Assembly: GCA_964350495.1 (NCBI GenBank)
Contig: CAYGKG010000004.1
Coordinates: 1,900 to 65,899 of the forward strand
Direction of reading: 5' to 3'
Source of the DNA: an uncultured Alphaproteobacteria bacterium
Lineage (GTDB): Bacteria > Pseudomonadota > Alphaproteobacteria > SHVP01
Length of the DNA stretch: 64,000 bases
Part shown: positions 423-44,671 of the stretch, in pieces
Numbering within the stretch: position 1 is the stretch's first letter
Layout of the letters: each line of letters begins with the position of its first letter
Translations under genes and position numbers: made by a program
The notes under the pieces: model-generated
Database searches by the model: none
Seen by the model: the letters and a program-made list of their open reading frames with translations, nothing else
What the model was told of the DNA's origin: nothing

Positions 423-1751
423 ATGAAAATTAGGACGTCTGGTGGGGCGATTGTCGGCCTCGGCTTGGCCGTTGGGTTTTCCCTCATCCTCGGATGGTCG
501 TCGGCCATGGGCCAGGAACTCCCCGAACGCGCGCGGGCGATGGATACGAATGGGAATGGCGTCATCGATCGCGATGAAGCGCGGGGACCCCTTGCCTCGA
601 ATTTTGCCGTCATCGACAGCGACAAAAGCGGCGGGATCGACGGGACCGAACTTGCTGCTTTTTTTGGCGGTGGCGGGAACGGTGCGGCCGTTGTCGTGGA
701 CGCCGTGATCGAAGAGGACCTAAGTCAGACTACATCGGTGATTGGTGCCTTGGTCGCGCAGCAGGCCGGTCCGGTCGCGGCCCGCGTATCGGGACCGATC
801 GACACCATTCGGGTCCAGGTCGGCGACCGCGTGAAACGGGGCGATGTCCTGGTGGAGGTTTCCACGGCGCGGCTGCAGTCCGAGACCGATCGCAATCTGG
901 CGATGGTCGACCAGAAACAGGCGATGGTGGTTATCGCCGAAGCCGAGTTGGAGAAATCTAGGCAAGAACGCGCGCGTATCGAAAACCTTGAGGGGTCTTC
1001 CGCCGTTTCGCAGAAACGGCGGGACGACGTCATACAGGACGTTGTCATCAGAGACGGCAATCTCAACAATCGAAAGGCCGAACTCGCGCAAGCCGTCGAA
1101 CAACTGAACCGGGCGAACATCGACCTTCGGGATGCCGTCGTTCGTGCCCCCTACGACGGCATCGTCACCGAAAAAAGCACCGAGGTCGGTTCGTTTGTAA
1201 GCGTGGGGGCGCCGGTGGTTCGATTGGTGAATCAAGCGGCACTGGAAATCGAGGTTCAGGTCCCAACCAACCGACTCGGCGGTGTGAAGCCCGGCGCCGA
1301 GTTCCGGATCGCGTTGGATGACGGGTCGCAGCACACCGCGGTCGTGCGCGCCGTCGTTCCGGTCGAAAACCCTCTGACCCGCACCCGCACCGTCCGATTA
1401 ACGCCGGCTTTCAAGGATCTCCTGAAGCAGCCCGCGCTTAACCAAAGCGTCACGGTCGAGGTTCCCATCGGCGGGCAAGCAAGTGTCACAACGGTGCACA
1501 AGGACGCAGTCACCCGAGACGAAGGGCGGCCGCTGGTGTTCGTCGTGTCAAATGGCCGCGTCGAGCGCAGGGACGTCACGCTGGGCGAGGCCGTCGGTCA
1601 ACGTTTTACCGTCATTCGAGGGCTGCGACCGGGGGAACGCGTTGTCGTTCGGGGCAACGAGCAACTGTCGTCGGGCGCTGCCGTGCGGGTGGTTAGCGAA
1701 ACCGGCGGTGGGGAAACCAGTGGCGGGTTGTCGGGGTCGAGAACCAACTAA
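423..1751 (+). CDS. Efflux RND periplasmic adaptor (HlyD/MFP family) with an N-terminal TM anchor and two EF-hand-like Ca-binding loops
   Basis: 442 aa. The N-terminus has a hydrophobic anchor (IVGLGLAVGFSLILGW). Two canonical 12-residue EF-hand loops follow (DTNGNGVIDRDE and DSDKSGGIDGTE), then a Gly-rich linker. The rest carries biotinyl/lipoyl-like and beta-barrel MFP motifs (IRVQVGDRVKRGDVLVEV...). The stop abuts the ATG of the RND pump. Confidence 0.85.
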   Translation: MKIRTSGGAIVGLGLAVGFSLILGWSSAMGQELPERARAMDTNGNGVIDRDEARGPLASNFAVIDSDKSGGIDGTELAAFFGGGGNGAAVVVDAVIEEDLSQTTSVIGALVAQQAGPVAARVSGPIDTIRVQVGDRVKRGDVLVEVSTARLQSETDRNLAMVDQKQAMVVIAEAELEKSRQERARIENLEGSSAVSQKRRDDVIQDVVIRDGNLNNRKAELAQAVEQLNRANIDLRDAVVRAPYDGIVTEKSTEVGSFVSVGAPVVRLVNQAALEIEVQVPTNRLGGVKPGAEFRIALDDGSQHTAVVRAVVPVENPLTRTRTVRLTPAFKDLLKQPALNQSVTVEVPIGGQASVTTVHKDAVTRDEGRPLVFVVSNGRVERRDVTLGEAVGQRFTVIRGLRPGERVVVRGNEQLSSGAAVRVVSETGGGETSGGLSGSRTN

Positions 1752-4700
1752 ATGAACATCATCCAACTCTCTATTCAGCGGCCCATCGCGGTGTTGGCCG
1801 CTGTGGTCATGATCGTCCTGTTCGGGTGGGTGTCGCTCGATCGCATTCCGATCCAGATGGCTCCCGACGTGCGCCAACCCGTCATCCGGGTGACGACGAA
1901 CTGGCCGGGCGCGGCGCCGGCGGAAATCGAGCGCGAGGTGATCAACCGGCAAGAAGAGGTTCTGAAGGGGATCGAGGGGCTCCAGCGCATGGAGTCCAAC
2001 GCCAGGAACAATCAAGGCAACGTCGAACTGGAATTCTCGCCCGATGCCGACCTCAATCGCTCGCTCCTTCTCGTTGCCAACCGCTTGGACCGCGTAAGCG
2101 GCTATCCGGAGGAGGCCGACGAGCCGACCCTCAGCACGTTCGGGACCGAGGATAACTCGATTGCCTGGTTCACGCTGCGACGGGTGGAAGGCAACACGAG
2201 AGACCTGACGAGTTACTCGGCCTTTCTCCAGGATGTCGTGCAGGACGGTATCGAACGGGTCGACGGCGTCGCAGGTGTCAACGTCTGGGGCGCGACCGAA
2301 CAGGAGATGCGGATCGAAATCGATCCTGAGCGGCTCTCGCGCTACGCGTTGACGGTCAACGACGTGGTTAGCCGACTGCGCACCGCGAATGCTTCGATTA
2401 CCGGCGGCGATGTTGACGAGGGAAAGCGCCGATATATCGTCCGGACCGAGGGCGATTTCACGACCGTCGCGCAAGTGCAATCCATGCTGCTGCGCAGCGA
2501 GTCTGACGGCAGCGGGGTCGGGCGCGTTTCGCTGGGCGATATCGCCGATGTGTTCGTCCAGTTCAAAGAGCGGAACGCGGTTTCCAAGACGATGGGAGCC
2601 CCGTCGATGACCTTGAGCATCACGGGTCAACAGGGCGCAAACATCATCGAGACGATGGACCGAATTCGCGCGAAGGTGCGCGAGCTTTCCGAAGGGCCGC
2701 TCAAGGAAGCCGGACTTTTTGTCACCCAGATCTTCGATGAGACCGATTACATCAAGTCGGCGATCAATCTTGTGCTGCAGAATGTTGTGATCGGCGGCTT
2801 GCTCGCGGTCGTCATACTTTTAATTTTCCTGCGCTCGTGGCGCCCAACCCTTGTCGTTGCGCTTTCGATTCCGGTCTCGGTGATCGGCTCGTTCGTCGCG
2901 ATGGCGATACTCGGACGATCGCTCAACGTCATCAGTTTAGCGGGGATCGCCTTTGCCGTCGGTATGGTGGTCGACGCAGCGATCGTCGTGTTGGAAAACA
3001 TTTACCGGTTGCGGCAAAAGGGCTATCCGGCTCACAAAGCGGCATACGAGGGTGCCGCACAGGTCTGGCCGGCTGTGCTGGTATCGGCGTTGACCACCGT
3101 GATGGTGTTCATTCCGATCCTGGTGATGACCCTTGAAGCAGGGCAGCTGTTCCGCGACATCGCCGTCGCGATCTCGGTGTCGGTGACGCTATCGCTGCTT
3201 GTTTCGGTGACGCTTATCCCGGCGCTTGCCAACAGAATGCTCGCAGGGGGTGTCGCCGAGCGCGAGAAAACGTTCCCGCTGCCGGGTATCGATCATTTCG
3301 GCCGGGCCTTCACGGCGTTCTGGGTCTGGTTCTCGCGCCTCGTGGTTCGCCGGAAGGCCGTGGCTGTGGGCGTTATCGTCGGCATTACCGGTGCCGCGAT
3401 CGCAATTTCGATCAGCGTGCTTCCTAAGGTCGACTATCTGCCGACTGGTAATCGCAACTTCGTCTTCGGATTTGTGACGCCGCCGTCGGGCTATAACCTA
3501 CGGACGACCGAGGCAATCACCGACTTGATCGAAGACGGTACCCGCAATTACTGGGCCGAGGGGGCTGACCCGAACGTTCTTGAAATCAACGGTGTCCCGG
3601 CCCTTAAAAACTACTTTTCGATCGCCCTGCAAGGCCGCGCTTTTGTCGGCGGGACGACCGTTGACGAAAGTCGTGCGGGGGAGATCATTCCGCTTTTGCA
3701 AAGACCGGCGCGCGACGAACCCGGCACACTCGCATTCTTGTTCCAACCGTCTTTGTTTGGCCGATCCGTTGGCGGCGGGCGGTCGATCGACATCGATATT
3801 TCCGGGGCGGATCTCAAGGTCCTCTTCGACGTTGCGCAGAACGCCTACGACCGGGTTCAGCAGGTCCTTCCGCAAAGCCAGGGCCACCGTACGCGGCCCC
3901 GCCCGGGATTGGAATTCGGCGCGCCCGAAGTTCGGGTGGTGCCGGACCGGCTTCGCCTCGCCGACAATGGTTTGACGGCGCGGGATCTTGGGCAAACCAT
4001 CGATGCCTTCAACGACGGGCTGCGTGTTGCAGAGATCAATTTCGGCGGCAAGCGAATCGATCTGACGCTGGCAGGTAGTGCGCCCCTACGCGAAGAGACC
4101 CAAGCCATCGGCGCGTTGCCGGTCGTCACTCGGGGTGGCCGTATCGTCCCGGTCGAGAGCCTTGCGGATGTGATCGTGACCTCGGGCCCGACCGAGATTC
4201 GCCGGGTGGAACGCGCCCGCACCGTGACGTTGCAGGTGTCTCCGGCACGAACGATGCCGTTGCAAGAAGCGATCGATATTATCAACGAACAGGTTCTGGC
4301 GCCGATGCAAGCGGAAGGCTTGCCGGCGGGCGTCGCGTTCAACTTGTCCGGCTCGGCCGACAAGCTGACGCAGACTATGGACGAACTGTCGATCGATTTG
4401 GTGCTGGCGTTGGTCATCGTCTTCTTGGTCATGGCAGTCTTGTTCGAAAGCTTCATCTATCCATTGATCATCATGTTGTCGGTGCCGGTCGCGGCTGCAG
4501 GCGGATTGGGCGGCCTGGCGTTGCTCAACAGATTTGTCATCCAGCCGCTCGATATGCTTACGATGCTGGGGTTTGTCATTCTTATCGGCATCGTCGTGAA
4601 TAACGCGATCCTGCTCGTGCATCAGACGCTGCATAACATTCGGAAAGAAGGGATGGCGCCCGAAGATGCCATCACCGATGCTACCCGAAATCGGATCAGA

Positions 4701-4937
4701 CCGATTTTTAGTTCCACGCTGACGAGCGTCTTCGGGATGTTGCCGCTCGTGATGTTCCCCGGAGCAGGGTCCGAACTTTACCGTGGCCTTGGATCTGTCG
4801 TGGTTGGCGGCCTGGCATTGTCCGCCGTGCTGACAATGGCCATCGTACCGCCGATGATGTCGATCACCGTCGCATGGATCGAAGGACGCGGGCGCGAGCG
4901 CGGGAAGACCCAAGAGATCGAACAACCCGCCACTTAG
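1752..4937 (+). CDS. RND efflux transporter permease (AcrB/HAE1 family)
   Basis: 1061 aa with 12-TM RND topology and two large periplasmic loops. The N-terminus is typical (MNIIQLSIQRPIAVLAAVVMIVLFGW). The start codon directly follows the MFP stop (taa-atg). Confidence 0.9.
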   Translation: MNIIQLSIQRPIAVLAAVVMIVLFGWVSLDRIPIQMAPDVRQPVIRVTTNWPGAAPAEIEREVINRQEEVLKGIEGLQRMESNARNNQGNVELEFSPDADLNRSLLLVANRLDRVSGYPEEADEPTLSTFGTEDNSIAWFTLRRVEGNTRDLTSYSAFLQDVVQDGIERVDGVAGVNVWGATEQEMRIEIDPERLSRYALTVNDVVSRLRTANASITGGDVDEGKRRYIVRTEGDFTTVAQVQSMLLRSESDGSGVGRVSLGDIADVFVQFKERNAVSKTMGAPSMTLSITGQQGANIIETMDRIRAKVRELSEGPLKEAGLFVTQIFDETDYIKSAINLVLQNVVIGGLLAVVILLIFLRSWRPTLVVALSIPVSVIGSFVAMAILGRSLNVISLAGIAFAVGMVVDAAIVVLENIYRLRQKGYPAHKAAYEGAAQVWPAVLVSALTTVMVFIPILVMTLEAGQLFRDIAVAISVSVTLSLLVSVTLIPALANRMLAGGVAEREKTFPLPGIDHFGRAFTAFWVWFSRLVVRRKAVAVGVIVGITGAAIAISISVLPKVDYLPTGNRNFVFGFVTPPSGYNLRTTEAITDLIEDGTRNYWAEGADPNVLEINGVPALKNYFSIALQGRAFVGGTTVDESRAGEIIPLLQRPARDEPGTLAFLFQPSLFGRSVGGGRSIDIDISGADLKVLFDVAQNAYDRVQQVLPQSQGHRTRPRPGLEFGAPEVRVVPDRLRLADNGLTARDLGQTIDAFNDGLRVAEINFGGKRIDLTLAGSAPLREETQAIGALPVVTRGGRIVPVESLADVIVTSGPTEIRRVERARTVTLQVSPARTMPLQEAIDIINEQVLAPMQAEGLPAGVAFNLSGSADKLTQTMDELSIDLVLALVIVFLVMAVLFESFIYPLIIMLSVPVAAAGGLGGLALLNRFVIQPLDMLTMLGFVILIGIVVNNAILLVHQTLHNIRKEGMAPEDAITDATRNRIRPIFSSTLTSVFGMLPLVMFPGAGSELYRGLGSVVVGGLALSAVLTMAIVPPMMSITVAWIEGRGRERGKTQEIEQPAT

Positions 4938-4960
4938 TCACTAACCCCTCGGAGGCACGA

Positions 4961-5854
4961 ATGTCCGCCATGCCAACGCCTATCGCCGACGCGATCCGTG
5001 CCATGGGGAACGTGTTCGACCCCAGCGTCGTCGCGCAAACATTCGCGCTTTACGATCCGCTGATCGCGGGCGCCCCGCGAGAGGGGGTCGGTGTGGTCCG
5101 GGATGTGAGGTACGGATCCGATCCACGCCATTTGTTGGATATCCATGTTCCTGAAGGCGTTGCTGGGCAGCCCATGCCGGTGGTCGTCTTTATCCACGGC
5201 GGCGGTTTTGTGCGGGGTCACAAGAATTCTAACCCCGACAATCTGGACATGGCTTACGCCAATATCGCCACCTATTTTGCGCGCAACGGCATGGTTGGCG
5301 TGAACGCGACCTACCGCCTTGCACCGGATCATCAATGGCCGGCGGGCGGCGAAGATGTCGGGTCGATGGTGGCGTGGTTGCGCGACAATATCGCTGCGCA
5401 CGGTGGCGATCCCGACAGCATTTTCCTGTTCGGCCAATCTGCCGGGGCGGTTCATGCGGCGACCTACCTGTTCTTCCCCGAGTTGCACTGCGCGCCGGGG
5501 TCGGGCGTTGCGGGCGCCGTGCTATTTTCTGGCGTCTATGACGTGGAGGCTGTCCCGGCACCTGCTGCCGAAGCCTATTACGGCCCCGATAGGGCCCAGT
5601 ACCGCGCGCGGTCGCCGCTCCATGCCGCCGCGAACAGCGACGTGCCATTGTTCATCGTTATTGCCGAGTATGACCCGCCCATGATGGAACTGCAGGGCAT
5701 CGACCTGCTTCGGACGGTGGCGCGACGGGACGGGCACAGTCCGCGGTTCTCGCGGCTGAAAGGTCACAATCACCTGTCCGAGGCGCTGCACCTCAATACA
5801 GGCGAAGAAACGGTTGGGCCGGAGTTGCTCGATTTCGTCCGGACGCGACGCTAG
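4961..5854 (+). CDS. Alpha/beta-hydrolase (esterase/lipase family)
   Basis: Oxyanion-hole motif HGGGF and nucleophile elbow GQSAG are present. Start is taken at MSAMPTPIAD, preceded by GGAGG. The upstream extension of the ORF-track frame overlaps the RND gene. Confidence 0.75.
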   Translation: MSAMPTPIADAIRAMGNVFDPSVVAQTFALYDPLIAGAPREGVGVVRDVRYGSDPRHLLDIHVPEGVAGQPMPVVVFIHGGGFVRGHKNSNPDNLDMAYANIATYFARNGMVGVNATYRLAPDHQWPAGGEDVGSMVAWLRDNIAAHGGDPDSIFLFGQSAGAVHAATYLFFPELHCAPGSGVAGAVLFSGVYDVEAVPAPAAEAYYGPDRAQYRARSPLHAAANSDVPLFIVIAEYDPPMMELQGIDLLRTVARRDGHSPRFSRLKGHNHLSEALHLNTGEETVGPELLDFVRTRR

Positions 5855-5857
5855 GTT

Positions 5858-7105
5858 CTAATTCTTGAGCGACGTGCCGGTCGTATCGGCGCCGTCGAGA
5901 TTGGCGCCCGACAGATCGGCATCCGTTGTCTCGGCGCCCGCGAGGTTCGCCTCGCGTAAATCGCACTGGCGAAGGTTCGCGCCTGAAAGATTTGCCGCCG
6001 ACAAATCGCTGCGCATGAGGCGCGCATCCGACAGGTTGGCACCGGACAAGTCCGCGCCGTGGAGATCTGTCTGCTCGGCGATGGCACCGTGTAGGTCGCC
6101 GTCTGTCATTTTGGCTTCACGCAGGGTCGCGCCCGACAGGGCGCTTTGTCGCAGGGATGCATTGCTCAGATCGGATCGGCGCCGTTCCCCGGTCGACTCG
6201 CCGCTAGGGTTCAGAATTTGGGCAGGCTCGAATCGGGCTTCCTCGAGGCGGGCATGGCGAATCTTTGCGGCCTTGAGCGACGCTCCGGTCAAGTCGGCGC
6301 CACGTAGGTCGGCATCGTCCAAGACCGCACCGTCAAGCTCCGACAGAACCAACCAAGCACCGGCCAGCAGCGCGCCCTTGAGGTTCGTGCCGCGCAAATT
6401 GGCACCGCTCAGGTACGCCGATCTCAGGTCGATGCCGCCTAGGTCGCGCCCGGCGAAATCGGCGCGTTTACCCAGTGCGCCAAAGGAGTCGATCCACAGG
6501 GCGTGTTCGCGCAGCAGTAATTGGATGTCCTGGGGTAGCGCGGCACCGGTTAGGTTGATGACGGCGCCCTCGAGTTCGGCGCGATCGAAATCGGTGTCCA
6601 GCAGCAGAGCACCCCGCAGATTGGCGTGCGAGGCGTTTGCCCCGACAAACGATGCGCGCGTCAGATCGCTCGCGCCAAGTTCTGCCTGCCCGAGCTGGGC
6701 GTTCTCAAAATTGGCGCCGCGAAGGGTCGCACCGTAGAGCACGCTTCGTTGTTGGGTTTCGCCGTTCTCAGCCGGCCGCAGATCTGCACCGGCAAAGTTG
6801 GCCTCGCTCAGTTTGGCATGCCTCAGTCGGGCGCCGCGCAAGTTGGCGTGTTCGAAATTCGCACCTTCGGCGTCGGCATGCTCGAAGTTCGCCAAGGCCA
6901 AGGCCGCCCGACCGAAATCCGTACCGGTTAGGACGCACCGCGAAAAGTCCGTTCCGCTAAGAACGGACTCGCGCAAATTGAGTCCCGGCAAACGCAGTCC
7001 CGAAAGATTCTCACCTTCGATCCGCGCCCTTTTGCCGCCGGGCTCGCGCTTGGAGAAGCGTTCGTGCGCCCTCAAGAGCTCGACAAATTCTTGGGCGGTC
7101 AACAC
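5858..7105 (-). CDS. Pentapeptide-repeat protein (two repeat blocks, 415 aa)
   Basis: Long runs of A(D/N)LxGA(N/D)L-type pentapeptide repeats (ADLSGANLSDARLMRSDLSAANLSGANLRQCDLREANLAG...) are split into two blocks by a linker. Confidence 0.8.
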   Translation of the reverse strand: MLTAQEFVELLRAHERFSKREPGGKRARIEGENLSGLRLPGLNLRESVLSGTDFSRCVLTGTDFGRAALALANFEHADAEGANFEHANLRGARLRHAKLSEANFAGADLRPAENGETQQRSVLYGATLRGANFENAQLGQAELGASDLTRASFVGANASHANLRGALLLDTDFDRAELEGAVINLTGAALPQDIQLLLREHALWIDSFGALGKRADFAGRDLGGIDLRSAYLSGANLRGTNLKGALLAGAWLVLSELDGAVLDDADLRGADLTGASLKAAKIRHARLEEARFEPAQILNPSGESTGERRRSDLSNASLRQSALSGATLREAKMTDGDLHGAIAEQTDLHGADLSGANLSDARLMRSDLSAANLSGANLRQCDLREANLAGAETTDADLSGANLDGADTTGTSLKN

Positions 7106-7281: not shown

Positions 7282-8688
7282 ATGGCAGCGGCACCGACGG
7301 GGCAATACATCATTGAAGCTGGGTGGGTCCTTGCCCACCGCGACAACGAGTCGGTATTGATTCCGAACGGTTCGGTTCGGGTGGAACACGACCGCGTCGC
7401 GGAAGTCAGCGAGGGGCGCATCGCCGGCAACCTCCCGCGTATTTCGATTCCCGGCGATATCGTTATGCCTGGACTCATCAGCGGCCACACCCACGTTGCG
7501 AGTGGAACGCCCACGCGGGGCATCATTGAGGGTGGCCGTTCATATTCGCGCCCTATCAAGTTGATGGACCAGCTCTCGGACGACGAGCTAGACGACTTAA
7601 CCGCATTTAACCTACTCGAGATTCTAAAAGCCGGATGCACGACCCAGGTAGAGATGAGCCTTAGCCTGCGGCAGGCCGAATCCTATGTGCGGGTGGCAGG
7701 GGCATGGGGCGCCCGGGGGTTTCCCGGCGGCATGATCCCCGGCACTTCTCGTTTGGACGGGATTTGGTTTAGGGACGACGACCAAGCGCTCTTTGACTCG
7801 GTACCCGACACATTGGCGGAGATCGAAGCCAATCTCGATTTCGGCAGGAAGCTCGCGGGATCCTATGACGGTCGCATGATGGGCATGATGGCGCCGCATG
7901 CGACCGACACCCATACCGACGAGACGATGTCGGCGATTATTGCCGCCGCGGGTGAGCTTGGAACCGGCATTCAAATTCATTTGTCGCAGCGTGCGACGGA
8001 GACCGACGCCGTGCGCCGCCTTCAGAACGGTCTTTCGCCGACCCAATGGTTGGACAAGCTCGGCGGGTTTGCCGGACCCTTTCTCGGCGCCCACATGTCC
8101 GGTCTCGACTGGGAAACCGATCCAGAAATATTGAAGCGGCACGACGCGGTCTATGCGCATTGCCCGTCCGCCGGCGGTGCGGGCGGCGCGACGCAACCCT
8201 ATCCGGAGGCGCTAGCGGCTGGGATCGCCACGAATATCGCCATCGACACACACTCGAACGACTTGCTTGAGAATATCAAGCTTGCGGTGATTGGCGGTAA
8301 GGCGCGGGCAAAATTGCTCGCCGGATCGAAGGTCAAGATGCCGACGATTTGGGATGCGGTCGACGGTGCCACCGTTGTCGCGGCGGACGGGTTAAGGCGG
8401 CCCGATCTGGGCCGGCTATGCGCAGGTGCGAAGGCCGATTTCATTACCGTGGATCTATCGGACTGGTTGGTCGGCGCCGGTGCCGCGCCGCCGGAACCTT
8501 TGAACAATTTGCTTTACGCGAACGGATCGATGGTTCGGCATGTCGCGGTCGACGGTAGATTTCTCGTTTACGATCGTGCCCCAACAATGGCTAACGAAGG
8601 CGACATCTTCGAACGGGGCGCAGTGGTGAATCGCAAGATTTGGAAGCAACTTGCCGACGAAAACTGGTTTACCCCAACGCCCAGATGA
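7282..8688 (+). CDS. Amidohydrolase-family metal-dependent hydrolase (chlorohydrolase/aminohydrolase-like)
   Basis: 468 aa. The metal-binding HxH motif (PGLISGHTHV) sits near the N-terminus, with later conserved His and Asp residues. Overall TIM-barrel amidohydrolase layout (TRZ/ATZ-like). Confidence 0.75.
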   Translation: MAAAPTGQYIIEAGWVLAHRDNESVLIPNGSVRVEHDRVAEVSEGRIAGNLPRISIPGDIVMPGLISGHTHVASGTPTRGIIEGGRSYSRPIKLMDQLSDDELDDLTAFNLLEILKAGCTTQVEMSLSLRQAESYVRVAGAWGARGFPGGMIPGTSRLDGIWFRDDDQALFDSVPDTLAEIEANLDFGRKLAGSYDGRMMGMMAPHATDTHTDETMSAIIAAAGELGTGIQIHLSQRATETDAVRRLQNGLSPTQWLDKLGGFAGPFLGAHMSGLDWETDPEILKRHDAVYAHCPSAGGAGGATQPYPEALAAGIATNIAIDTHSNDLLENIKLAVIGGKARAKLLAGSKVKMPTIWDAVDGATVVAADGLRRPDLGRLCAGAKADFITVDLSDWLVGAGAAPPEPLNNLLYANGSMVRHVAVDGRFLVYDRAPTMANEGDIFERGAVVNRKIWKQLADENWFTPTPR

Positions 8689-9714: not shown

Positions 9715-9890
9715 TGACAATGGCTGCGACGGTTCCCCGCAAGGGGTGAAAAGGGAACACGGTGAGGCTTAGGCCGAAACCGTGGCTGCCCCCGCAACTG
9801 TAAGCGACGAGCTGGCGTCCGAACGTGCCACTGGGAAACCGGGAAGGCAGGGCGTTGGCGGTGACCCGCGAGCCAGGAGACCTGCCGTCA
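9715..9890 (+). ncRNA. Cobalamin (AdoCbl) riboswitch
   Basis: Conserved elements are read directly: AAGGGAAcacGGTGAgg, GCTGCCCCCGCAACTGTAAGCG, the B12-box GCCACTGGGAAaccGGGAAGGC, and the closing GAGCCAGGAGACCTGCC. It lies in the 5' leader of btuB. Confidence 0.85.
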
Positions 9891-10091
9891 ACGTCACCCA
9901 TCCGTCGATCGGGGCGCTCGGTGGTGCGGATTTCCGTAGTGGTGGCGACGAATGTACGTCGTAGCTGGGGGTCCGCGAGATGGAAGCTTTTGCCTTTCCG
10001 GAGAGACAAACCGCCAAGAATCGGGTGCCAGAGCTTTGTCTGGCCTTCGACGCTGCGAACGTACGCCACGTTCATCGCTTCGGAGGTCTTC

Positions 10092-12038
10092 ATGAAAACA
10101 GTAACGACAGCCACGGCGCTCGCCATGGGTCTACTTGCCGCTAGCCCGATCGACACCGCCCGGTCCCAGGGGTTGTTGCCTGAGACGATCGTCACCGCGA
10201 CTCGGTTGCCGACACCGCGGGAGCGCGTCGCCAGTTCGGTGACGGTCATTACCGCGGCGGATATCGCGGCCAAACAACAACGAACGTTGGTGGACGTGCT
10301 CGGCGACGTGCCGGGTCTACAGGTTGTGCAGTCGGGCGGGTTGGGCAAACAAACCTCGGTGTTCTCGCGCGGGAGCAACAGCAATCACACGCTGATCGTC
10401 ATCGACGGCGTCGAGATGAGCGACGCCAGCACGCCGAACGGGGCGTTCAATTTTGCCCATCTTTTGTCTGCAGACATCGAACGCATTGAAATCGTTCGCG
10501 GCCCGCAAAGCACGTTGTACGGGTCCGATGCGATCGGTGCGGTTATCAATATCACGACGAAACTGGGGTCCGGCCCTGCGCAGTATTTCGTGCATGGCGA
10601 AGGCGGGTCCTTCGACACCATCGCCGGCACGCTCCAGGCGCAGGGAAGCCGCGGGCGTCTTCAGTATGCCCTTGGGACAAGCTACCTCGATAGCGACGGC
10701 GAGAGCGTGACGCCCGCGCGCATTCGTGCCCTGCAGGCAGGCGCTACCGAGGAAGATGACGGTTACACCCAGCGTTCGGCATCGGTGCGTCTCGCCTATG
10801 AGGCCTCCGAAAGCGTGAACTTCGGTTTCGCGCTGCACCACATCAGAACCCGGTCCGAAACCGATCAACCGATCGAAGACCCCGATGCCTACGAACGGAC
10901 CCGTCAGTGGTTTGGCCGGGCGGACGCCACATTGGATTTCTTTGGCGGACTCATGGAATCGATTGTCGGCGCGTCGGTGACCCGCCACACACGGGATTCG
11001 TTCAATGTGCCTGGGATCGCTAACACGTTGCAGCGGAGCGACGATCTGGGAACAAAAACCAAGTTCGAAGTCCAAAACAGTTTCTTCGCGATTGACGATC
11101 ACGTTCTAACCTTGGGCCTGGAAACCGAACTCGATTCGCTGAAGAACGTGCAGTTCTCCAACTTCAGCGGTTTCACAATCGTGGGGACGACCGATTCGGA
11201 CGCCCGGACGAACGCGGCCTACGTCCAGGATCAGTTTGTGCTCGGCGAACGGGTGTTCGGCACTGTCGGCATTCGCTACGACGATCACGACACGTTGGGA
11301 TCGAAACTCACTTTCCGGTTAGCGCCGGTCGTCGCCTTTCCTGAGCACGGGCTTCGCCTCAAAGGAGCGGTCGGAACGGGGTTTCGTGCGCCCGCCTTGT
11401 TTCAGCTGTTCGGCAACACGCGTAGCAGCAACGGCGGTGTCTTTACCGGCGATCCCAATCTGCGCGCCGAAGAAAGCATGGGGTGGGAAGTTGGCTTCGA
11501 GCAAACGATGTTGGCCGGCAAGGTCGTGATGGGATCGACTTATTTCGATCAAGAAATCAAGAACCTGCTTGAGACGAAGTTCACAGGTTCGAACTCCACC
11601 GTCATTAACCTAGCGCGCGCGGACATCTTTGGGTTCGAGTCGTTTATCAGTGCAAGCGTGACTCCGACAGTTACGGTCAGGCTCGACCACACTTTCACCC
11701 GTGCCGAAAACAAAGCCACAGGTGGAGACTTGCGGCGGCGGCCTAAACAAAAACTTAGCGCCGACGTTCGCTACCAAGCGAGCGACCGGTTGTCGGTTGT
11801 CGGCGGTATGCGGTTTAACGGGCCGGGAAAGGACGTTTCCGGAAATCCGCTTGCGTCGTCCCAAGAGATCAACAAGGGAAGTCACACCCTCGTGGACGTT
11901 TCGGCAAATTACGACGTCAACGACGACGCGTCGCTATTCGGCAGGATCAATAACCTGCTGAACCGGAAGTATGAGACTGCCGATGGGTTGGCAGGGGCGA
12001 GCCGCGCGGTTGTCGTCGGCGCCCGCCTGAGGTTCTGA
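10092..12038 (+). CDS. btuB: TonB-dependent outer-membrane cobalamin receptor
   Basis: Signal peptide MKTVTTATALAMGLLAASPIDTARSQ. A TonB-box-like ETIVTATR follows, then the plug and barrel domains. The C-terminal residue is aromatic (RLRF). GGAGG lies upstream. The gene is downstream of the B12 riboswitch. The ORF-track start at 9825 would cut through the riboswitch. Confidence 0.85.
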   Translation: MKTVTTATALAMGLLAASPIDTARSQGLLPETIVTATRLPTPRERVASSVTVITAADIAAKQQRTLVDVLGDVPGLQVVQSGGLGKQTSVFSRGSNSNHTLIVIDGVEMSDASTPNGAFNFAHLLSADIERIEIVRGPQSTLYGSDAIGAVINITTKLGSGPAQYFVHGEGGSFDTIAGTLQAQGSRGRLQYALGTSYLDSDGESVTPARIRALQAGATEEDDGYTQRSASVRLAYEASESVNFGFALHHIRTRSETDQPIEDPDAYERTRQWFGRADATLDFFGGLMESIVGASVTRHTRDSFNVPGIANTLQRSDDLGTKTKFEVQNSFFAIDDHVLTLGLETELDSLKNVQFSNFSGFTIVGTTDSDARTNAAYVQDQFVLGERVFGTVGIRYDDHDTLGSKLTFRLAPVVAFPEHGLRLKGAVGTGFRAPALFQLFGNTRSSNGGVFTGDPNLRAEESMGWEVGFEQTMLAGKVVMGSTYFDQEIKNLLETKFTGSNSTVINLARADIFGFESFISASVTPTVTVRLDHTFTRAENKATGGDLRRRPKQKLSADVRYQASDRLSVVGGMRFNGPGKDVSGNPLASSQEINKGSHTLVDVSANYDVNDDASLFGRINNLLNRKYETADGLAGASRAVVVGARLRF

Positions 12039-12040
12039 GC

Positions 12041-12868
12041 GTGGCGGCACGACGGTCCCTGATGCTTGCCATCGTGTTGGTAGGGGCTTTGGCCGTCGCG
12101 TCGACTTCCGCCGGCGCACAGGTGGCGATGCGAGTCGTTTCGATCAATCTGTGCGCCGACCAGTTGGTGTCGCTGTTGGCGAATCGTGAAAGCATTCTGT
12201 CTGTCACCCACCTATCGGCCGACCCCTCGATCTCCTATGTGGCGAGCCGGGTTACGGACATACCGGTCAACTACGGTCGGTCCGAAGAAGTACTGGCGCT
12301 GCGACCGGATCTGGTTGTGGCCGGACGCTTTGCCGCTCGACCGGCAGTCGCCATGCTCCAACGGTTTGGCGTCGAGGTTGTCGATCTCCCGATCCCCGAA
12401 TCCTTTGCCGACATTCGCGCCCAGGTCCGCTTCCTGTCGCGGCGACTTGGTGTCGCGCCCCGCGGTGAAGAAATGGTCGAGGAAATGGACCGTCAGTTGG
12501 GCGCCATTTCGATCGGCGACCGCCCGGGGCCACGGGCGTTAGTGCTGGGAGTCCGTGGGTTTACCAGCGGTACTGGCACTTTGGTCGATGAGGTGCTTGC
12601 GGCGGCCGGTCTTCGGAATGTTGCGGTCGAGCTAGGCATTGACGGCTACGGTCAAATCGGATTGGAGGAAATTCTTCGGGCAGACCCGGAGATCGTCGTG
12701 ATCAATCAACCGACGGCGGCCTTTCCGTCGCTTGCCCGCGATGTGCTGGCGCACCCTGCGCTTCGGCATTTCGGCGGCCGGATCATTCAGATCGACCCTT
12801 CGTTATGGACCTGCGGCGGCCCCTATACCGTGGAGGCTGTGACGTTTCTGGCCCGGGCGACGCAATGA
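12041..12868 (+). CDS. btuF: Periplasmic cobalamin-binding protein of an ABC transporter (BtuF/FecB-like)
   Basis: GTG start followed by a signal peptide (MAARRSLMLAIVLVGALAVASTSAGA), then a class III periplasmic-binding-protein fold. It sits inside the btuB-btuCD operon. Confidence 0.75.
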   Translation: MAARRSLMLAIVLVGALAVASTSAGAQVAMRVVSINLCADQLVSLLANRESILSVTHLSADPSISYVASRVTDIPVNYGRSEEVLALRPDLVVAGRFAARPAVAMLQRFGVEVVDLPIPESFADIRAQVRFLSRRLGVAPRGEEMVEEMDRQLGAISIGDRPGPRALVLGVRGFTSGTGTLVDEVLAAAGLRNVAVELGIDGYGQIGLEEILRADPEIVVINQPTAAFPSLARDVLAHPALRHFGGRIIQIDPSLWTCGGPYTVEAVTFLARATQ

Positions 12869-13899
12869 CCGCGGTCTCCCCGGAACCGTCCGCGACCCCG
12901 CCGCGCGCACGCTCGGACGCAGGGTTGATCGTTGCACTCGGGCTTCTCGTCTTGGTCCTAGTGTTCGTTTCGATGGTTGTTGGGCGCGTCCCCCTCGCTT
13001 TCATCGAGACCGTGGGTCAGTTGATGACGGGTACCGACACAACCGCTGCCTTGATCTTGAGCGAGATTCGTTTTCCTCGGGCGCTTCTCGCCGCGTTGGT
13101 TGGCGCGACCTTAGGGGCTGCCGGCGCCGCGATGCAGGGCCTGCTAAGGAACCCATTGGCCGAACCCGGCATTCTCGGAATCTCGGCATCGGCCGGCCTC
13201 GGCGCCGTCATAGCCCTCTATTTCGGTCTTGCTCAAGCATCGAGCTATGCGCTGCCGTTTGCCGGCATGACAGGCGCGCTGATAGCGGTCCTGCTGACCT
13301 ATGTGTTGGCGGGGCGGGATGCGAGCATTCTGACGCTGATACTGGCGGGCGTCGCCCTGAATGCGTTTGCGGGGGCGCTGACCTCCCTTGCCCTCAATCT
13401 TGCACCTAGCCCCTATGCGGCGCTTGAAATCGTTTTCTGGATGCTGGGATCGTTGGCCGACCGGTCCTTCGATCACGTCAGAATCGCTCTGCCCCTCATG
13501 GTCGTGGGAGCCGTCCTTTTGGCTGGAACCGGGCGGGCGCTCAATGCGCTGTCGCTTGGGGAGGATGTCGCTCGCTCGCTCGGGGTCAATCTGCGTGTCG
13601 TTCGCGCGCGGCTTATTGTCGGAACTGCCTTCGCCGTCGGCGCCGCGGTGTCGGTCTCTGGAACGATCGGGTTCGTCGGCCTTGTGGTTCCGCATCTCCT
13701 CCGACCTTTGGTCGGGCATGAGCCCGGTCGGCTCATGCTTCCCAGCGCCCTCGGCGGCGCGGCGCTTGTGTTGGCGGCCGATATCGCGACGCGTCTCGTC
13801 CCGGTCGAGCCTGATCTTCAGTTGGGGGTGGTGACGGCGATCGTCGGTGCGCCGTTCTTTCTCTATCTCCTATTGCATATTCGCCGGTCCATGCGATGA
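12865..13899 (+). CDS. btuC: FecCD-family ABC permease (BtuC-like)
   Basis: About 10 TM helices in FecCD layout. Its ATG overlaps the btuF stop (ATGA). Confidence 0.8.
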   Translation: MTAVSPEPSATPPRARSDAGLIVALGLLVLVLVFVSMVVGRVPLAFIETVGQLMTGTDTTAALILSEIRFPRALLAALVGATLGAAGAAMQGLLRNPLAEPGILGISASAGLGAVIALYFGLAQASSYALPFAGMTGALIAVLLTYVLAGRDASILTLILAGVALNAFAGALTSLALNLAPSPYAALEIVFWMLGSLADRSFDHVRIALPLMVVGAVLLAGTGRALNALSLGEDVARSLGVNLRVVRARLIVGTAFAVGAAVSVSGTIGFVGLVVPHLLRPLVGHEPGRLMLPSALGGAALVLAADIATRLVPVEPDLQLGVVTAIVGAPFFLYLLLHIRRSMR

Positions 13900-14696
13900 G
13901 AGGCATTCAGGCAATAGACATTTCGGTGACCTTGGGCGGTCGGTCGGTGTTGCAGGGCGTGTCCCTGGATGGCGCCGCCGGGACGCTGATTGGCCTGATC
14001 GGACCCAACGGCTCCGGCAAGACGACGTTGTTGCGAACTCTTGCGGGGTTGCAGCGGTGCGCGGCCGGGAGTGTGAGAATCGATGGAAGCCCCATCGAGG
14101 CAATTGCCCGTTCTGCGTTGGCGCGCCAAGTGTCGTACTTGCCGCCCGGTGCCGAGATTCATTGGCCTCTCACGGTCGAACGCCTCGTTGCGCTCGGTCG
14201 CATACCGCACCTGGACGGGTGGCAGCGCCTCCGCGGGCCCGATCACGCGGCAATCAATCGGGCGATCGACGCCGTTGGCGCCGCTCACCTAACCGGTCGG
14301 ACAGTCTCGACACTTTCAACCGGTGAACGTGCCCGTGTGGTCCTCGCGCGCGCCTTGGCGAACGACCCGGCGATCCTACTTGCCGATGAGCCGGTTGCGT
14401 CGCTTGACCTCAACCAGCAACTCTTGGTCCTCGACCTCATTCGGGACCGCTGCAAGGCTGGAAAGACCGCGGTCGTGGTTCTGCACGACCTCAGTCTCGC
14501 CGCGCGATATTGCGATCGAACCTTTTTGCTCCATGAAGGCCGAGTCTTCGCCGATGGCCTCCCAGACGCCGTTCTCGTACCGGCGAACCTGCGTGCCGCC
14601 TACGGCGTCGAGGGCGAACTGATCCATCACCTTGGCGTGCCAAGTGTCGTGGCACTGCGGCGCCTTGACGGGCCGTCGTCGAAGGGGACGCCGTGA
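13896..14696 (+). CDS. btuD: ABC transporter ATP-binding protein (BtuD/FecE-like)
   Basis: Walker A GPNGSGKTTLL, ABC signature LSTGERARV, Walker B ILLADEP. Its ATG overlaps the btuC stop (ATGA). Confidence 0.85.
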   Translation: MRGIQAIDISVTLGGRSVLQGVSLDGAAGTLIGLIGPNGSGKTTLLRTLAGLQRCAAGSVRIDGSPIEAIARSALARQVSYLPPGAEIHWPLTVERLVALGRIPHLDGWQRLRGPDHAAINRAIDAVGAAHLTGRTVSTLSTGERARVVLARALANDPAILLADEPVASLDLNQQLLVLDLIRDRCKAGKTAVVVLHDLSLAARYCDRTFLLHEGRVFADGLPDAVLVPANLRAAYGVEGELIHHLGVPSVVALRRLDGPSSKGTP

Positions 14697-15685
14697 GAGC
14701 GCTCGGCCTCGGGCTCTATCTCTCTGCGACCGTCCATGTGGTCGCGATAGGCGCGATGCTCGTTGGCTTCCCGGGTACGGGGTCGTCCCCCGATCAACCG
14801 GACATCGTCGTTACCGAATTGATCTTTGAAGCTAGCAGCGCGCAACCGGAATCAAGGAATGCCAGTATTGAGGTCGCAACCCACGGTGCGGACGACTTAC
14901 CGGGGTCGGCACCTGCGACTGTGGGCGCTGACAAACCGGTCGCTGCCGATCCGGTTGGCGAGGAGGCAGGACCAATGCCGGCCTCGGGGACTCCCGTGGA
15001 GGACAACACCGCAACTCCTTTTCGCGAGGAACCGGTCGTTGCGGAGGCGGTGCAAATGGCGTCGTCGTCCCCAGTTGGACCAATCGCCGCGGCGCAGACC
15101 AACGCGCCACCGGGTCGTCCGGAAGTCCAATGGCACGGACCGGCACCGCGTAATAAGCCTGCGCCACCGCCGCATACGCAGCGCACCGCAGCGTCACCAT
15201 TGGCGGCGGAACGCGCCGTTGCCGCCCTGGCGCCCCAGGCGCTGCCGACAGGAAGCGATGCGGTGCCCCATCCCGTGGATCGACCGACGGCATCGCCGCC
15301 TCCGGTTCAGAGCCAGAGCAACCTTACCGCGCGACCCTCGCATGGCGCGGTAGGTGCGGTGCCTTCCGACACGGTAGAGACAGTTCCGGCGCAGTACGCC
15401 GGGATCGCCCTTGGCAATCGCTCGCCAGCGTACCCCTACGCCGCCCGCCGGATCGGCGTCGAGGGGCGGGTCGTTATCGGGGTGACGGTCGGGCGCGATG
15501 GCTTTGTTGCCAATGCAGCGATCGCTGAATCCAGCGGTCACCGACTTCTGGACCGCGCGGCGTTGGAGGCCGTGCGTGATTGGAGGTTCATCCCCGCCAA
15601 GCGCGCGGGTCAGCCGGTTGCATCGACCATTGCCGTGCCCATCGTTTTTCGTCTTGCGAACGAATCCGCACCCATAAGCAAGTAG
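14693..15685 (+). CDS. tonB: TonB-family energy transducer
   Basis: N-terminal TM helix, a long Pro/Ala-rich spacer, and a C-terminal TonB domain (GVEGRVVIGVTVGRDGFV...EAVRDWRFIPAKRAGQPV). Its GTG start overlaps the btuD stop (GTGA). Confidence 0.75.
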   Translation: MRALGLGLYLSATVHVVAIGAMLVGFPGTGSSPDQPDIVVTELIFEASSAQPESRNASIEVATHGADDLPGSAPATVGADKPVAADPVGEEAGPMPASGTPVEDNTATPFREEPVVAEAVQMASSSPVGPIAAAQTNAPPGRPEVQWHGPAPRNKPAPPPHTQRTAASPLAAERAVAALAPQALPTGSDAVPHPVDRPTASPPPVQSQSNLTARPSHGAVGAVPSDTVETVPAQYAGIALGNRSPAYPYAARRIGVEGRVVIGVTVGRDGFVANAAIAESSGHRLLDRAALEAVRDWRFIPAKRAGQPVASTIAVPIVFRLANESAPISK

Positions 15686-36012: not shown

Positions 36013-37224
36013 ATGGCAAGAGTTCCCGTTAGGCGGGCACGCGGAGACGCGCCGACGATCGCCGATCCGCCCTGGGTCGACGATGTGCGGCCGTCGGACG
36101 ATCCGCCGCCGCCGATTGAGCCCGACTGGGCGCGCGCAGTCCGTCCTTCGGACGGTGCCGCCTCTGAACCCTTCGAGCCCGATTGGGCTCAAGACCGCCC
36201 CGAGGACCGCCGGGCGCCAAGACCGATCGACCCGCCCTGGGCCGCTGAATCGGCTACCGATCGTGAGGACACCCTGCGGGCCGCCTTAGCTGAGGCTGCG
36301 CCGCCAGATCCGCCTTGGGCGCGCGCCGCCGCTAGACCGCGGCAGACAAAGCCGATTGACCCCCCTTGGGTCGAAGACAATCGCCCCACCAACGATCCAT
36401 TGCCGCCGATCGAGCCCGGTTGGGCGGCCGCGACGGCGGACACCGATGACGAGGCGCGCCAACCCGCCGATCCGCCGTGGGCGAACGCCGCCCCCGTTCG
36501 GGCGCCGGTGATCCTGCGTGGGCCGATCGATCCGCCCTGGGTCCCGGACGCCATTTCCGAAGCCCTCGACGCCAAAGAGGAAGCAGCGCGGGCTGCCTTC
36601 GAGCCGGCTTGGGCGGCCAACCCGGCGGTTCGGGTTCGTCGCGGCCCGCTTGCCCCGGTGGAGCCGTCATGGGCCACCGCCGGCGCGACGCCGGCGCCAG
36701 AACCTGCAGGGTTGTTTGATCCGGGGTGGGAGCGCAATCCGTCGCTCGCTTCCCTTCGACCGTCGCCGATCGAGCCCGATTGGGCGTCCGAAAGCAGCGA
36801 GGCGCGCGACGATCAAGCGATCGAGCTGTTCGACCCCGACTGGGAGGAGGCCGGATCCCTTCGGACGGCTGATACGTTGCCGCCGATGGAGCCCAGCTGG
36901 GCTGTCGAGACGCGCAGCGAGGTCGAGCAAGCGAGATCGGACCCGTTCGATTCGCGATATGAGGAGAATACCATTTCGTTGCCCGACAAGACCATCGTCC
37001 GGAGAGGTGCACGGCGGTTGAAGGACCTTGCATCGCAGGTGTCGTTGAATCCGTTTGGCCGCGCCAAGCGAAAGAGCGAGGCGCGCGCGCTCGACCGCCA
37101 AAAACTCATTGCCGAAGCGATGCGGATTCGTAGCGAGACCCGTGAGGCCCTCGGCGAGGATACAGTCAATGCACTGTACCGCGGCATTATGGGGACCGAT
37201 CCTCCGGCAGGCGAGAACCGCTGA
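36013..37224 (+). CDS. Acidic Pro/Trp-rich tandem-repeat protein (about 16 copies of an [I/F]-[DE]-P-x-W-[AEV] motif), unknown function
   Basis: The translation shows a ~20-residue periodicity: IADPPWV..IEPDWA..EPDWA..IDPPWA..DPPWA..IDPPWV..IEPGWA..DPPWA..IDPPWV..EPAWA..EPSWA..DPGWE..IEPDWA..DPDWE..EPSWA. It ends in a basic C-terminal segment. The gene sits between the mutase and meaB. Confidence 0.65.
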   Translation: MARVPVRRARGDAPTIADPPWVDDVRPSDDPPPPIEPDWARAVRPSDGAASEPFEPDWAQDRPEDRRAPRPIDPPWAAESATDREDTLRAALAEAAPPDPPWARAAARPRQTKPIDPPWVEDNRPTNDPLPPIEPGWAAATADTDDEARQPADPPWANAAPVRAPVILRGPIDPPWVPDAISEALDAKEEAARAAFEPAWAANPAVRVRRGPLAPVEPSWATAGATPAPEPAGLFDPGWERNPSLASLRPSPIEPDWASESSEARDDQAIELFDPDWEEAGSLRTADTLPPMEPSWAVETRSEVEQARSDPFDSRYEENTISLPDKTIVRRGARRLKDLASQVSLNPFGRAKRKSEARALDRQKLIAEAMRIRSETREALGEDTVNALYRGIMGTDPPAGENR

Positions 37225-43644: not shown

Positions 43645-44649
43645 TTAGTGTGGTTTTGCGAGGGCGGCGCTTTCCGGCAAATCTTCGCCGAAGGACCGCT
43701 GGTAGTATTCCGCAATGAGCGGTCGTTCCATCTCGTCGCATTTGTTCGCGAAAGTGAGGCGGAAAGCGAACCCGACATCGTTGAAAATCTGGGCGTTCTC
43801 GGCCCACGTGATCACCGTGCGCGGCGACATGACGGTCGAAATGTCGCCGGACTGAAAGCCGGTGCGCGAAAGCTCCGCGACGCGGACCATCTTGGCGACG
43901 ATCTTTCGCCCATCCTCGGTGTCGTACTCCGGAACCTTGGCGAGCACGATGGCGACCTCTTGCTCGTGCGGCAGGTAGTTCAAAGTCGCCACCAGATTCC
44001 AGCGGTCCATTTGACCTTGGTTGATCTGTTGCGTTCCGTGATAGAGGCCGGTTGTGTCGCCCAAGCCGATAGTATTCGCTGTCGCGAACAGGCGGAACGC
44101 AGGGTGGGGACGGATCACTCGATTCTGGTCAAGGAGGGTCATCTTGCCCTCGGCCTCGAGGACTCGCTGGATCACGAACATCACATCGGCGCGTCCGGCA
44201 TCGTACTCGTCGAAGACCAACGCGGTCGCCGTCTGCAACGCCCACGGCAGAATTCCTTCGCGAAATTCCGTGATCTGTTTGCCGTCGCGGATCACGATGG
44301 CGTCCTTGCCGATGAGGTCGATTCGGCTGATGTGGCTATCGAGGTTCACGCGGATGCAAGGCCAGTTCAACCGCGCCGCGACCTGCTCGATGTGAGTGGA
44401 CTTCCCGGTACCGTGCAGGCCTTGGATCATGACCTTTCGGTTGTACTTGAACCCGGCCAAGATCGCGGTCGTCGTGTCGTGGTCGAAGCGATAGGCCTCA
44501 TCGATATCGGGCACATATTCGTTCGGTTGCGAAAACGCGGGCACGAGCATGTCGGTATCGAGACCGAATACCTGCCGAGCGGATACATCGATGTCTGGAA
44601 TGTGGTTAGGATCCTTAGCTGCGGCCAAGGCGCTTTCGTGGCTCTCCAA
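43645..44649 (-). CDS. cobS: Aerobic cobaltochelatase subunit CobS (AAA+ MoxR-like ATPase)
   Basis: [19 protein letters not shown] is the CobS N-terminal signature. Walker A is [16 protein letters not shown]+ sensor motifs are present. Confidence 0.85.
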
Positions 44650-44671
44650 GTTTTTCGTCCCGATTCCTGGT

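Follow-up and report, generated by a model that had tools for sequence, protein, structure and literature searches.

Genes near the start of a 64,000-nucleotide stretch of DNA from an uncultured alphaproteobacterium (contig CAYGKG010000004.1; the whole stretch is referred to below as the window) encode two components of a tripartite efflux pump, and the first of these carries a pair of EF-hand loops ahead of its conserved core. It is an adaptor (membrane fusion protein) of 442 aa, encoded at positions 423..1751 on the plus strand and assigned from its open reading frame (ORF) together with NCBIfam, Pfam and AlphaFold results. It is followed by a permease belonging to the RND (resistance-nodulation-division) superfamily (1752..4937, plus strand, 1061 aa). 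We propose, with a probability of about 0.9, that the adaptor is exported by the Sec pathway and lacks a lipid anchor, and that a compact, independently folding EF-hand pair sits at its N-terminus on a flexible linker. We propose far more tentatively, at somewhat less than even odds, that this module is a constitutively Ca2+-loaded accessory for tethering or assembly and not an on/off Ca2+ switch. Judged from sequence, what is new here appears to be the captured and duplicating EF-hand head, the RND adaptor core being of a known kind.

The N-terminal part of the adaptor reads MKIRTSGGAIVGLGLAVGFSLILGWSSAMG, then QELPERARAM-DTNGNGVIDRDE-ARGPLASNFAVI-DSDKSGGIDGTE-LAAFFGGGGNGA, and then the first beta strand, VVVDAV. 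Loop 1 (DTNGNGVIDRDE) covers residues 41-52 (543..578, plus strand) and loop 2 (DSDKSGGIDGTE) residues 65-76 (615..650, plus strand), both as read from the sequence. Oxygen ligands stand at positions 1, 3, 5, 9 and 12 of each loop, as D/N/N/D/E in loop 1 and D/D/S/D/E in loop 2, and in both loops position 6 is Gly and position 8 is Ile. The first-pass annotation of this DNA had called the loops perfect and had asked that positions 1, 3, 5 and 12 be checked by alignment; these are canonical in both loops, as are all other ligand positions, although the term is slightly generous given that the Pfam models are passed only narrowly (EF-hand_5, 26.7 against a cutoff of 25.9; EF-hand_1, 25.6 against 25.4). 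Two further models miss their cutoffs, EF-hand_6 with 24.8 where 25 is needed and the pair model EF-hand_7 with 18 where 30 is needed; EF-hand_7 does score in longer homologues. The start codon at 423, also flagged for checking, is the first start of the ORF, and a hydrophobic export leader, conserved in homologues, lies upstream of the loops. When the six-frame translation of the window was searched with a loose EF-loop pattern there were 5 matches, compared with a mean of 0.9 in 30 shuffles, and the adaptor pair was the only pair of loops 20-40 aa apart, with none in the 30 shuffles.

Comparison within the family supports the loops strongly. Among the top 120 homologues (40-79% identity) 110 have them, so that the search for orthologs with the same insertion, suggested at the outset, has a clear outcome, and the distance from one loop to the next is exactly 24 aa in 163/163 pairs. 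The 55-residue module has the consensus xxxLSxRAKALDANGNGVIDRDEARGPLAxNFDxxDxDKSGxLDGAEIRxFFxGG. Conservation was scored over 153 distinct family modules chosen by a regular expression for the loops, so the ligand percentages are partly inflated by ascertainment: loop 1 has D at position 1 (100%), N at 3 (97%), N at 5 (97%), G at 6 (97%) and E at 12 (100%), and loop 2 has D at position 1 (100%), D or N at 3 (99%), S, N or D at 5, D at 9 (100%) and E at 12 (100%). Taken together, the ligand, Gly-6 and hydrophobic-8 positions are 85-100% conserved over these modules, with positions 3, 5 and 6 at 85-97%, and the non-ligand residues L4, G26, P27, F32 and F52 of the module are near-invariant. The alignments show that the predicted metal-ligand positions are under selection, and on the same evidence the EF-hand pair is a trait of the family and not a product of chance.

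The number of modules per protein is 1, 2 or 3, giving 2, 4 or 6 loops in tandem. In some proteins, such as P0036 and P0100, the copies are nearly identical, and tandem duplication is therefore both recent and recurrent. The length of the linker also differs between aligned family members, some of which have as many as about 40 additional Pro, Ala, Lys or Gly residues.

Structure prediction places the pair in a discrete domain at residues 31-85 (513..677, plus strand), which is delimited by Pfam, AlphaFold and Foldseek together. In the AlphaFold model of the full adaptor the mean predicted local distance difference test score (pLDDT) is 86.5; residues 31-85 score 83-92, the leader below 50, and the Gly-rich linker GGGGNGA (residues 82-88; 666..686, plus strand) about 69. 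Modelled alone, the module reaches a pLDDT of 87.7. Its helices occupy residues 35-38, 56-64 and 74-81; the two loops are linked through beta bridges (residues 48-49 and 71-72). A Foldseek search of the PDB with the module gave only EF-hand proteins as top matches, namely calcineurin B, EhCaBP1, troponin C, polcalcin and calmodulin, with TMq values of 0.6-0.7 and 30-35% identity; the E-values are about 0.01 or weaker, which is weak as expected for 55 residues. The geometry departs from that of a canonical EF-hand, with its spacing of about 36 residues and helices of about 10: the loops here are 24 residues apart, the helices are 4-9 residues long, and the helix that should follow loop 1 is replaced by EARGP. 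By its loop chemistry and predicted fold the module is thus an EF-hand, of a compact bacterial variety.

Upstream of the module lies a predicted Sec signal peptide (residues 1-30; 423..512, plus strand) that reads MKIRTSGG, then AIVGLGLAVGFSLILGW, then SSAMG/Q, where the slash marks the predicted cleavage site. It begins with basic residues, which are followed by a hydrophobic core and, immediately before the module, by a small-x-small site. Because the A-M-G/Q at the end of the leader (GWSSAMG/QELP) conforms to the (-3,-1) rule, and because homologues throughout the family read AxA/Q at the aligned site, we read the leader as cleaved; the first-pass annotation had taken it for a transmembrane anchor, a description that we do not retain. 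No lipobox Cys follows the leader, and the lipid anchoring that is typical of adaptors of the AcrA/MexA type is therefore missing. The sequence indicates a cleaved Sec signal, in which case the mature adaptor would be soluble and would begin with the module.

The remainder of the protein is a recognisable RND adaptor. Its core of membrane-proximal, beta-barrel, lipoyl and alpha-hairpin domains spans residues 89-426 (687..1700, plus strand), as judged from AlphaFold, Foldseek and sequence matches to the PDB. The profile TIGR01730 (RND_mfp) matches residues 91-423 with 187.4 bits, where the cutoff is 94.9, and Pfam HlyD_D23 and HlyD_3 match as well. The top Foldseek matches of the adaptor are AcrA, MacA, TMexC and MexA, with E-values from 1e-23 down to 5e-26, and its sequence matches in the PDB are TriAB, MexJ and MacA. 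Two helices of about 40 residues (148-188 and 197-236) form the hairpin, and between them lies the tip motif R185-x3-L189-x6-S196 (RIENLEGSSAVS; 975..1010, plus strand), in which R185 is invariant in the family and L189 and S196 are present in this adaptor. The equivalent RLS motif of MexA (R119/L123/S130) docks adaptors to channels of the TolC type (PMC4446572). All of the RND-adaptor family features that were tested are present save lipid anchoring. The adaptor thus resembles AcrA, MexA, MexJ, TriAB and MacA in its four-domain core, in its RLS tip and in the position of its gene directly upstream of an RND permease; it differs from AcrA and MexA, which have a lipobox Cys, and from all of the solved adaptors, which have nothing that matches its N-terminal EF-hand pair. 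Alignment with solved adaptors, the first check that had been proposed, gave the same picture: the core aligned, and in the sequence search of solved structures no adaptor aligned to residues 1-80. Two EF-hand loops N-terminal to a canonical adaptor core, as originally described, are thus borne out by sequence, family conservation and the fold model.

The adaptor gene ends with a stop codon at 1749-1751 and the ATG of the permease follows immediately at 1752, so that translation of the permease is probably coupled to that of the adaptor. In all of the related loci examined the adaptor gene lies beside an RND permease gene, and among ten loci encoding EF-bearing adaptors whose synteny was compared this pair is the sole constant feature. 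We have high confidence that these two adjoining genes are the conserved core of a tripartite pump.

How widely the module is distributed was assessed in two ways. In a survey with one genome per species, which gave more than 550 relatives, EF loops were found in 7 of the best 80 loci, these being the ones checked for loops; the seven belong to Alphaproteobacteria or to metagenome-assembled genomes of Rhodospirillaceae and are mostly marine, and the remaining relatives are 33-49% identical in the core. No adaptor in this species-representative collection is more than 52% identical to that of the window. The closest database adaptor (P0001, encoded on the metagenome contig L001 from ENA) differs from it at two residues, R4W and G430W, so that the window derives from a strain or assembly that is very close to that of L001 without being identical. 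More broadly, adaptors with the module fall into over a hundred clusters of sequences, all from uncultured and mostly marine bacteria. The first-pass annotation had called EF-hands uncommon in adaptors; the 7 of the best 80 relatives and the unmatched N-terminus among solved structures agree with this, as does the literature. No description of an EF-hand-bearing adaptor was found in the open-access literature searched, and in the available text of adaptor reviews and of a large review of tripartite pumps neither EF-hands nor calcium are mentioned in connection with adaptors, the extra domains described there being those of CusB and SilB only.

Adaptors without the module are also common in this family. 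Among 192 related adaptors 118 have it and 74 lack it, and in the family alignment the leader of the EF-less homologues passes almost directly into the first beta strand. These EF-less sisters adjoin permeases of the same RND subfamily, and for this reason the module is an accessory, one that the adaptor family in general can do without. In a neighbour-joining tree of the 192 adaptor cores, which is crude in that it was built from BLOSUM distances and has no support values, the EF-bearing proteins fall into a few blocks that call for at least 3 gains or losses from an EF-less root, and close relatives differ in whether they have 2, 4 or 6 loops, these numbers being interleaved in the tree. One sub-lineage of adaptors thus probably gained the module in a few events, with tandem duplication occurring repeatedly afterwards.

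The likely source of the module is suggested by a profile search of 1.84 billion representative proteins, which returned 18,723 matches at E<=1e-3. The best of these are mostly short, signal-peptide-bearing proteins made of multiple EF repeats, often with the same 24-aa spacing. Further fusions join the module to periplasmic proteins of other kinds: in P0152, an HlyD-type adaptor distinct from this one, it is at the C-terminus (residues 444-510), P0138 has four EF loops N-terminal to a metallo-beta-lactamase fold, and P0180 combines EF hands with a PDZ domain. Because it is fused to such proteins and is abundant in secreted repeat proteins, the module is best read as an EF-hand unit of general use in the bacterial periplasm, captured by this lineage of adaptors.

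Among eukaryotic EF-hand proteins of the canonical type, calmodulin lobes, troponin C and calcineurin B share with the module the chemistry of the loops and their pairing through beta bridges, and provide its best fold matches. Calmodulin loops are spaced about 36 residues apart. The module differs from these proteins in its spacing of 24, in the EARGP that stands in place of the helix after loop 1, and in flanking helices of 4-9 residues. In the EF loops of lanmodulin position 2 is Pro. Here it is T in one loop and S in the other, and over the family loop 1 has A/T/K/S there and loop 2 has K/C/R/T; lanthanide-binding hands of the lanmodulin type were considered and rejected on this ground. 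Closer in setting are EfhP of Pseudomonas aeruginosa (PA4107) and the Caulobacter protein CaBP, which resemble the module by description, being Sec-exported periplasmic proteins with 2-3 canonical EF loops (PMC9132961; PMC13171946). Both of these proteins stand alone, whereas the module is fused to a pump adaptor.

The permease itself departs from the well-studied pumps at a site of central importance. Pfam ACR_tran (PF00873) spans its residues 3-1035 with E=1.1e-205, consistent with a full-length fold, and its best matches in the PDB are pumps of the HAE-1 type (8yr0, 7wlv, CmeB and AcrB), with E-values to about 1e-100; it falls short of the NCBIfam cutoffs for RND_permease_1 and RND_permease_2 (599 and 501 against 1250). 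In transmembrane helix 4 (TM4) the motif GMVVDAAIVVLEN (2961..2999, plus strand) has D408 as the equivalent of AcrB D407 and Ala as the equivalent of AcrB D408, and in TM10 the motif GIVVNNAILLV (4587..4619, plus strand) has Asn (N950) in place of AcrB K940. Aligned solved pumps read VVDDAIVV and xKNAI at these places, where this permease has VVDAAIVV and VVNNAIL. The equivalent of AcrB R971 is kept and that of T978 is Ser. The D407/D408/K940 triad of AcrB is described as essential, with substitution of any member abolishing efflux (PMC8277102).

These substitutions are common to the relatives. In a survey of loci L001-L085 the D-A pair occurs in 74/74 related loci with a readable TM4, with near-identical motif surroundings, and the full D-A/N-N signature in 63/63 with both motifs readable, nearly all of them from marine Alpha- and Gammaproteobacteria, whether the adaptor is EF-bearing or EF-less. 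The permease is thus like AcrB, MexB, CmeB and MdtB/C in matching the ACR_tran fold over its full length and in having the R971 equivalent, and differs from AcrB in having D/A/N for the triad and Ser for T978. The signature sets these permeases apart as an RND subfamily of their own, in which the coupling site is non-canonical, and suggests altered ion coupling, possibly to Na+. As this subfamily does without two residues that are essential in AcrB, it offers a separate, testable lead on alternative energy coupling.

A heavy-metal pump of the Cus or Czc kind was considered and rejected because of family scores below cutoff (TIGR00914 for CusA/CzcA, 332.7 against 701.45; TIGR00999 for CzcB, 122.1 against 319.3; NF007303 for CusB, 28.3 against 390) and because the structural relatives are multidrug pumps. 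CusB, SilB and ZneB do share with the window adaptor an extra region beyond the four core domains, in their case one that handles metal. Their systems differ, since permease and adaptor of the window both score under the HME and CzcB cutoffs. The ligands of CusB are Met, for soft metals, in contrast to the EF-hand oxygen ligands of the window adaptor, which are for hard cations, and no Met- or His-rich metal motif was found in the N-terminus of the adaptor.

Turning to what the module might do, seawater contains about 10 mM Ca2+, and the bacteria that carry these adaptors are mostly marine. Periplasmic EfhP binds Ca2+ with a Kd of 13.7 μM, and the Ca2+ level in the periplasm is similar to that outside or higher (PMC9132961). 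Because periplasmic Ca2+ follows the external concentration, EF sites of such affinity would be saturated in seawater or waste water. A plausible explanation is that the module folds only after export, that its loops, in a periplasm where Ca2+ tracks the environment at mM levels, are then permanently Ca2+-loaded, and that, stabilised by Ca2+, it serves at the adaptor's inner-membrane end as a tether or docking head. It might hold adaptor protomers to one another, or to the permease or the membrane surface, and in this way promote assembly of the pump; a pump with six adaptors would have 12-36 Ca2+ sites encircling the RND trimer at its base. A tether is favoured over a switch because copy number and linker length vary, because EF-less sister adaptors exist, and because environmental Ca2+ is far above the Kd of a typical EF-hand.

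Several points weigh against these proposals. With regard to the identity of the protein, the Pfam EF-hand scores are marginal and that of the pair model is below cutoff. Cleavage of the signal peptide was judged by rule only, and MacA provides a precedent for an uncleaved signal peptide that is retained as an anchor (PMC13328181). The uncharged stretch of the leader is also long, at 28 residues in the near-identical P0001 compared with a family median of 19. The adaptor may be either soluble or signal-anchored. The tree from which gains and losses were counted is crude, as described above. With regard to mechanism, the proposal is drawn from anatomy and habitat; sites of low affinity could respond to mM Ca2+ or to competition between Ca2+ and Mg2+; and the frequent changes in copy number would fit a role in capacity or buffering equally well.

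The first alternative, which we regard as unlikely, is that the module is a Ca2+ sensor or gate, in line with the Ca2+-dependent assembly or gating that the first-pass annotation had suggested; occupancy of the EF loops would alter the shape of the module, as it does in calmodulin or EfhP, and so switch hexamerisation, engagement of the permease or opening of the channel. In such a scenario a drop in Ca2+ would report a leaky outer membrane, and efflux would follow periplasmic Ca2+. The canonical loops, with a bidentate Glu at position 12 that favours Ca2+ over Mg2+, are consistent with this, as is the fact that the module adjoins the membrane-proximal domain, which is the part of an adaptor that contacts the permease (PMC13328181). 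EfhP, itself a periplasmic protein with two EF-hands, undergoes a conformational change on binding Ca2+ that exposes a hydrophobic surface, and mediates regulation by Ca2+ (PMC9132961). Sites of μM affinity would, however, be saturated by the mM Ca2+ of the environment and periplasm, and variable copy number and linker length fit poorly with a defined allosteric path. Two further points against a sensor are that permeases of the same RND subfamily work with sister adaptors lacking EF loops and that the same module occurs on unrelated periplasmic proteins.

An improbable alternative is that the module aids export or folding and has no role specific to the pump. At the sub-μM Ca2+ of the cytoplasm it would stay unfolded, leaving the N-terminus fit for Sec translocation, and it would fold in the Ca2+-rich periplasm, acting as a ratchet or as a tag for solubility or stability. 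Its position immediately after the signal-peptidase site, its occurrence on several unrelated periplasmic proteins and its abundance in secreted repeat proteins would suit such a role, and Ca2+-triggered folding after export is described as established for the GG-repeats of RTX proteins (PMC8277102), which use the same logic in type I secretion. On the other hand, the EF-less sister adaptors are presumably exported without a module, and a mere tag is unlikely to be repeatedly duplicated and kept under strong purifying selection in one lineage.

Were either gating by Ca2+ or a role as cation antenna for a permease driven by an ion other than H+ (for example Na+) to hold, this would be the first tripartite pump with an adaptor directly controlled or fed by a metal cation, a claim to which we give distinctly little weight. 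The antenna version draws on the coupling site of the permease, in which one Asp and two Asn replace Asp-Asp-Lys, and would, if true, concern Na+ in marine bacteria.

More doubtful again is that the module captures, buffers or hands off cations in the manner of CusB, passing Ca2+ or its mimics (Cd2+, Pb2+ or lanthanides) to the permease as substrate or coupling ion. There is precedent in the route of Cu+ from CusF to the N-terminal domain of CusB and on to CusA (PMC4446572; PMC8277102), and the multiplication of modules in tandem and the non-canonical D-A/N-N site of the partner permease would both fit. However, the permease scores as an HAE-type pump, misses the heavy-metal cutoffs and has multidrug pumps as structural relatives; the D-A/N-N site is also found in many EF-less systems and is thus independent of the module; the loops lack the position-2 Pro of lanmodulin; and export of Ca2+ into 10 mM Ca2+ would make little sense. 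Finally, that the loops are a chance Asp/Gly-rich motif, or lie upstream of the real start codon, as Pfam scores barely over cutoff might suggest, is refuted by conservation of the module in 110/120 homologues with invariant spacing, and is at odds with the confidently modelled EF-hand fold, with 30 shuffles that gave no comparable loop pair and with the export signal upstream of the loops.

Adaptors are now seen as active organisers of tripartite pumps, and their recognised extra domains, in CusB and SilB, serve in the hand-off of heavy metals. A predicted Ca2+-binding head would add a new accessory domain to this list, and a tractable handle on how an adaptor that has no lipid anchor is brought to the permease and kept there. 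It would also link efflux machinery with the bacterial periplasmic EF-hand proteins, which are poorly understood.

The outer-membrane channel of the pump is probably encoded elsewhere. As the first-pass annotation had stated, the window appears to have no gene like TolC or OprM: there was no Pfam match to the OEP/TolC family in 20 ORFs (264-1078 aa) from the rest of the window, a set that took in every other window ORF of >=400 aa except an amidohydrolase gene at 7282..8688, which was identified through L001. No outer-membrane factor adjoins any of the ten EF-bearing loci examined. Separate encoding of this component is ordinary, as with AcrAB and TolC. Three of the scanned ORFs (36013..37224, 43498..44715 and 49794..51578, of 403, 405 and 594 aa) had no Pfam match at E<=1e-5, and it is possible that a very divergent outer-membrane factor is among them. 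The 405-aa ORF at 43498..44715 is possibly spurious, as ORFs of the other strand overlap it.

Downstream of the permease is a gene for an alpha/beta-hydrolase (esterase) of the hormone-sensitive lipase (HSL) type (4961..5854, plus strand, 297 aa; Pfam BD-FAE, Abhydrolase_3 and COesterase). A GGAGG lies 6 nt upstream of 4961, and because of this and the gene call in the near-identical contig L001 the start is most likely 4961 rather than 4874. The gap to the stop codon of the permease is then 23 nt, which allows co-transcription of the two genes. The protein carries HGGG and GQSAG motifs, lacks a signal peptide and is taken to be cytoplasmic. The first-pass annotation had extended the operon from adaptor and permease to this hydrolase on the basis of tight spacing. 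The abutting adaptor and permease genes are conserved, as set out above, but the continuation to the esterase is restricted to the lineage of the window (including L001) and to its nearest relative, L088, in which the adaptor is 79% identical. In L086 (adaptor 73% identical) the esterase is missing, the synteny is otherwise the same and the pentapeptide-repeat gene described below lies directly downstream of the permease; the esterase is likewise absent from all of the distant loci among the ten EF-bearing loci examined, where the neighbours are a deacetylase-xseB-ispA-dxs block and a Crp/Fnr regulator. Given this confinement to the window lineage and L088, the esterase is, on comparative grounds, a recent lineage-specific neighbour that looks like an insertion, and not a conserved component of the pump. 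Its membership of the pump module is ruled out by synteny.

Convergent with these genes is the two-block pentapeptide-repeat protein of 415 aa that had been noted previously; its gene occupies 5858..7105 of the minus strand, and the match to Pfam Pentapeptide has E=2.6e-70. The protein consists almost entirely of repeats, with 10 Pfam stretches in two blocks, and its gene has the same convergent place in L086 and L088. On the other side of the pump genes an upstream cluster (1..9733 of L001, 1..155 of the window) is kept in L086 and L088, comprising amine oxidase, DUF1365, cyclopropane-fatty-acid-synthase-like methyltransferase, SDR, DUF6134, SnoaL and then an MFS transporter. In L001 and L088 the next gene after the transporter is a divergent glyoxalase/VOC gene, the 5' end of which is at about 155 of the window. 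Further into the window, at 9825..15685, a TonB-dependent receptor (Plug and beta-barrel) is followed by a permease of the FecCD type in what looks like a cluster for uptake of iron or cobalamin. Other genes in the window encode CobT, methylmalonyl-CoA mutase, SecA and ArgJ, and a hybrid PAS histidine kinase adjoins an EAL response regulator.

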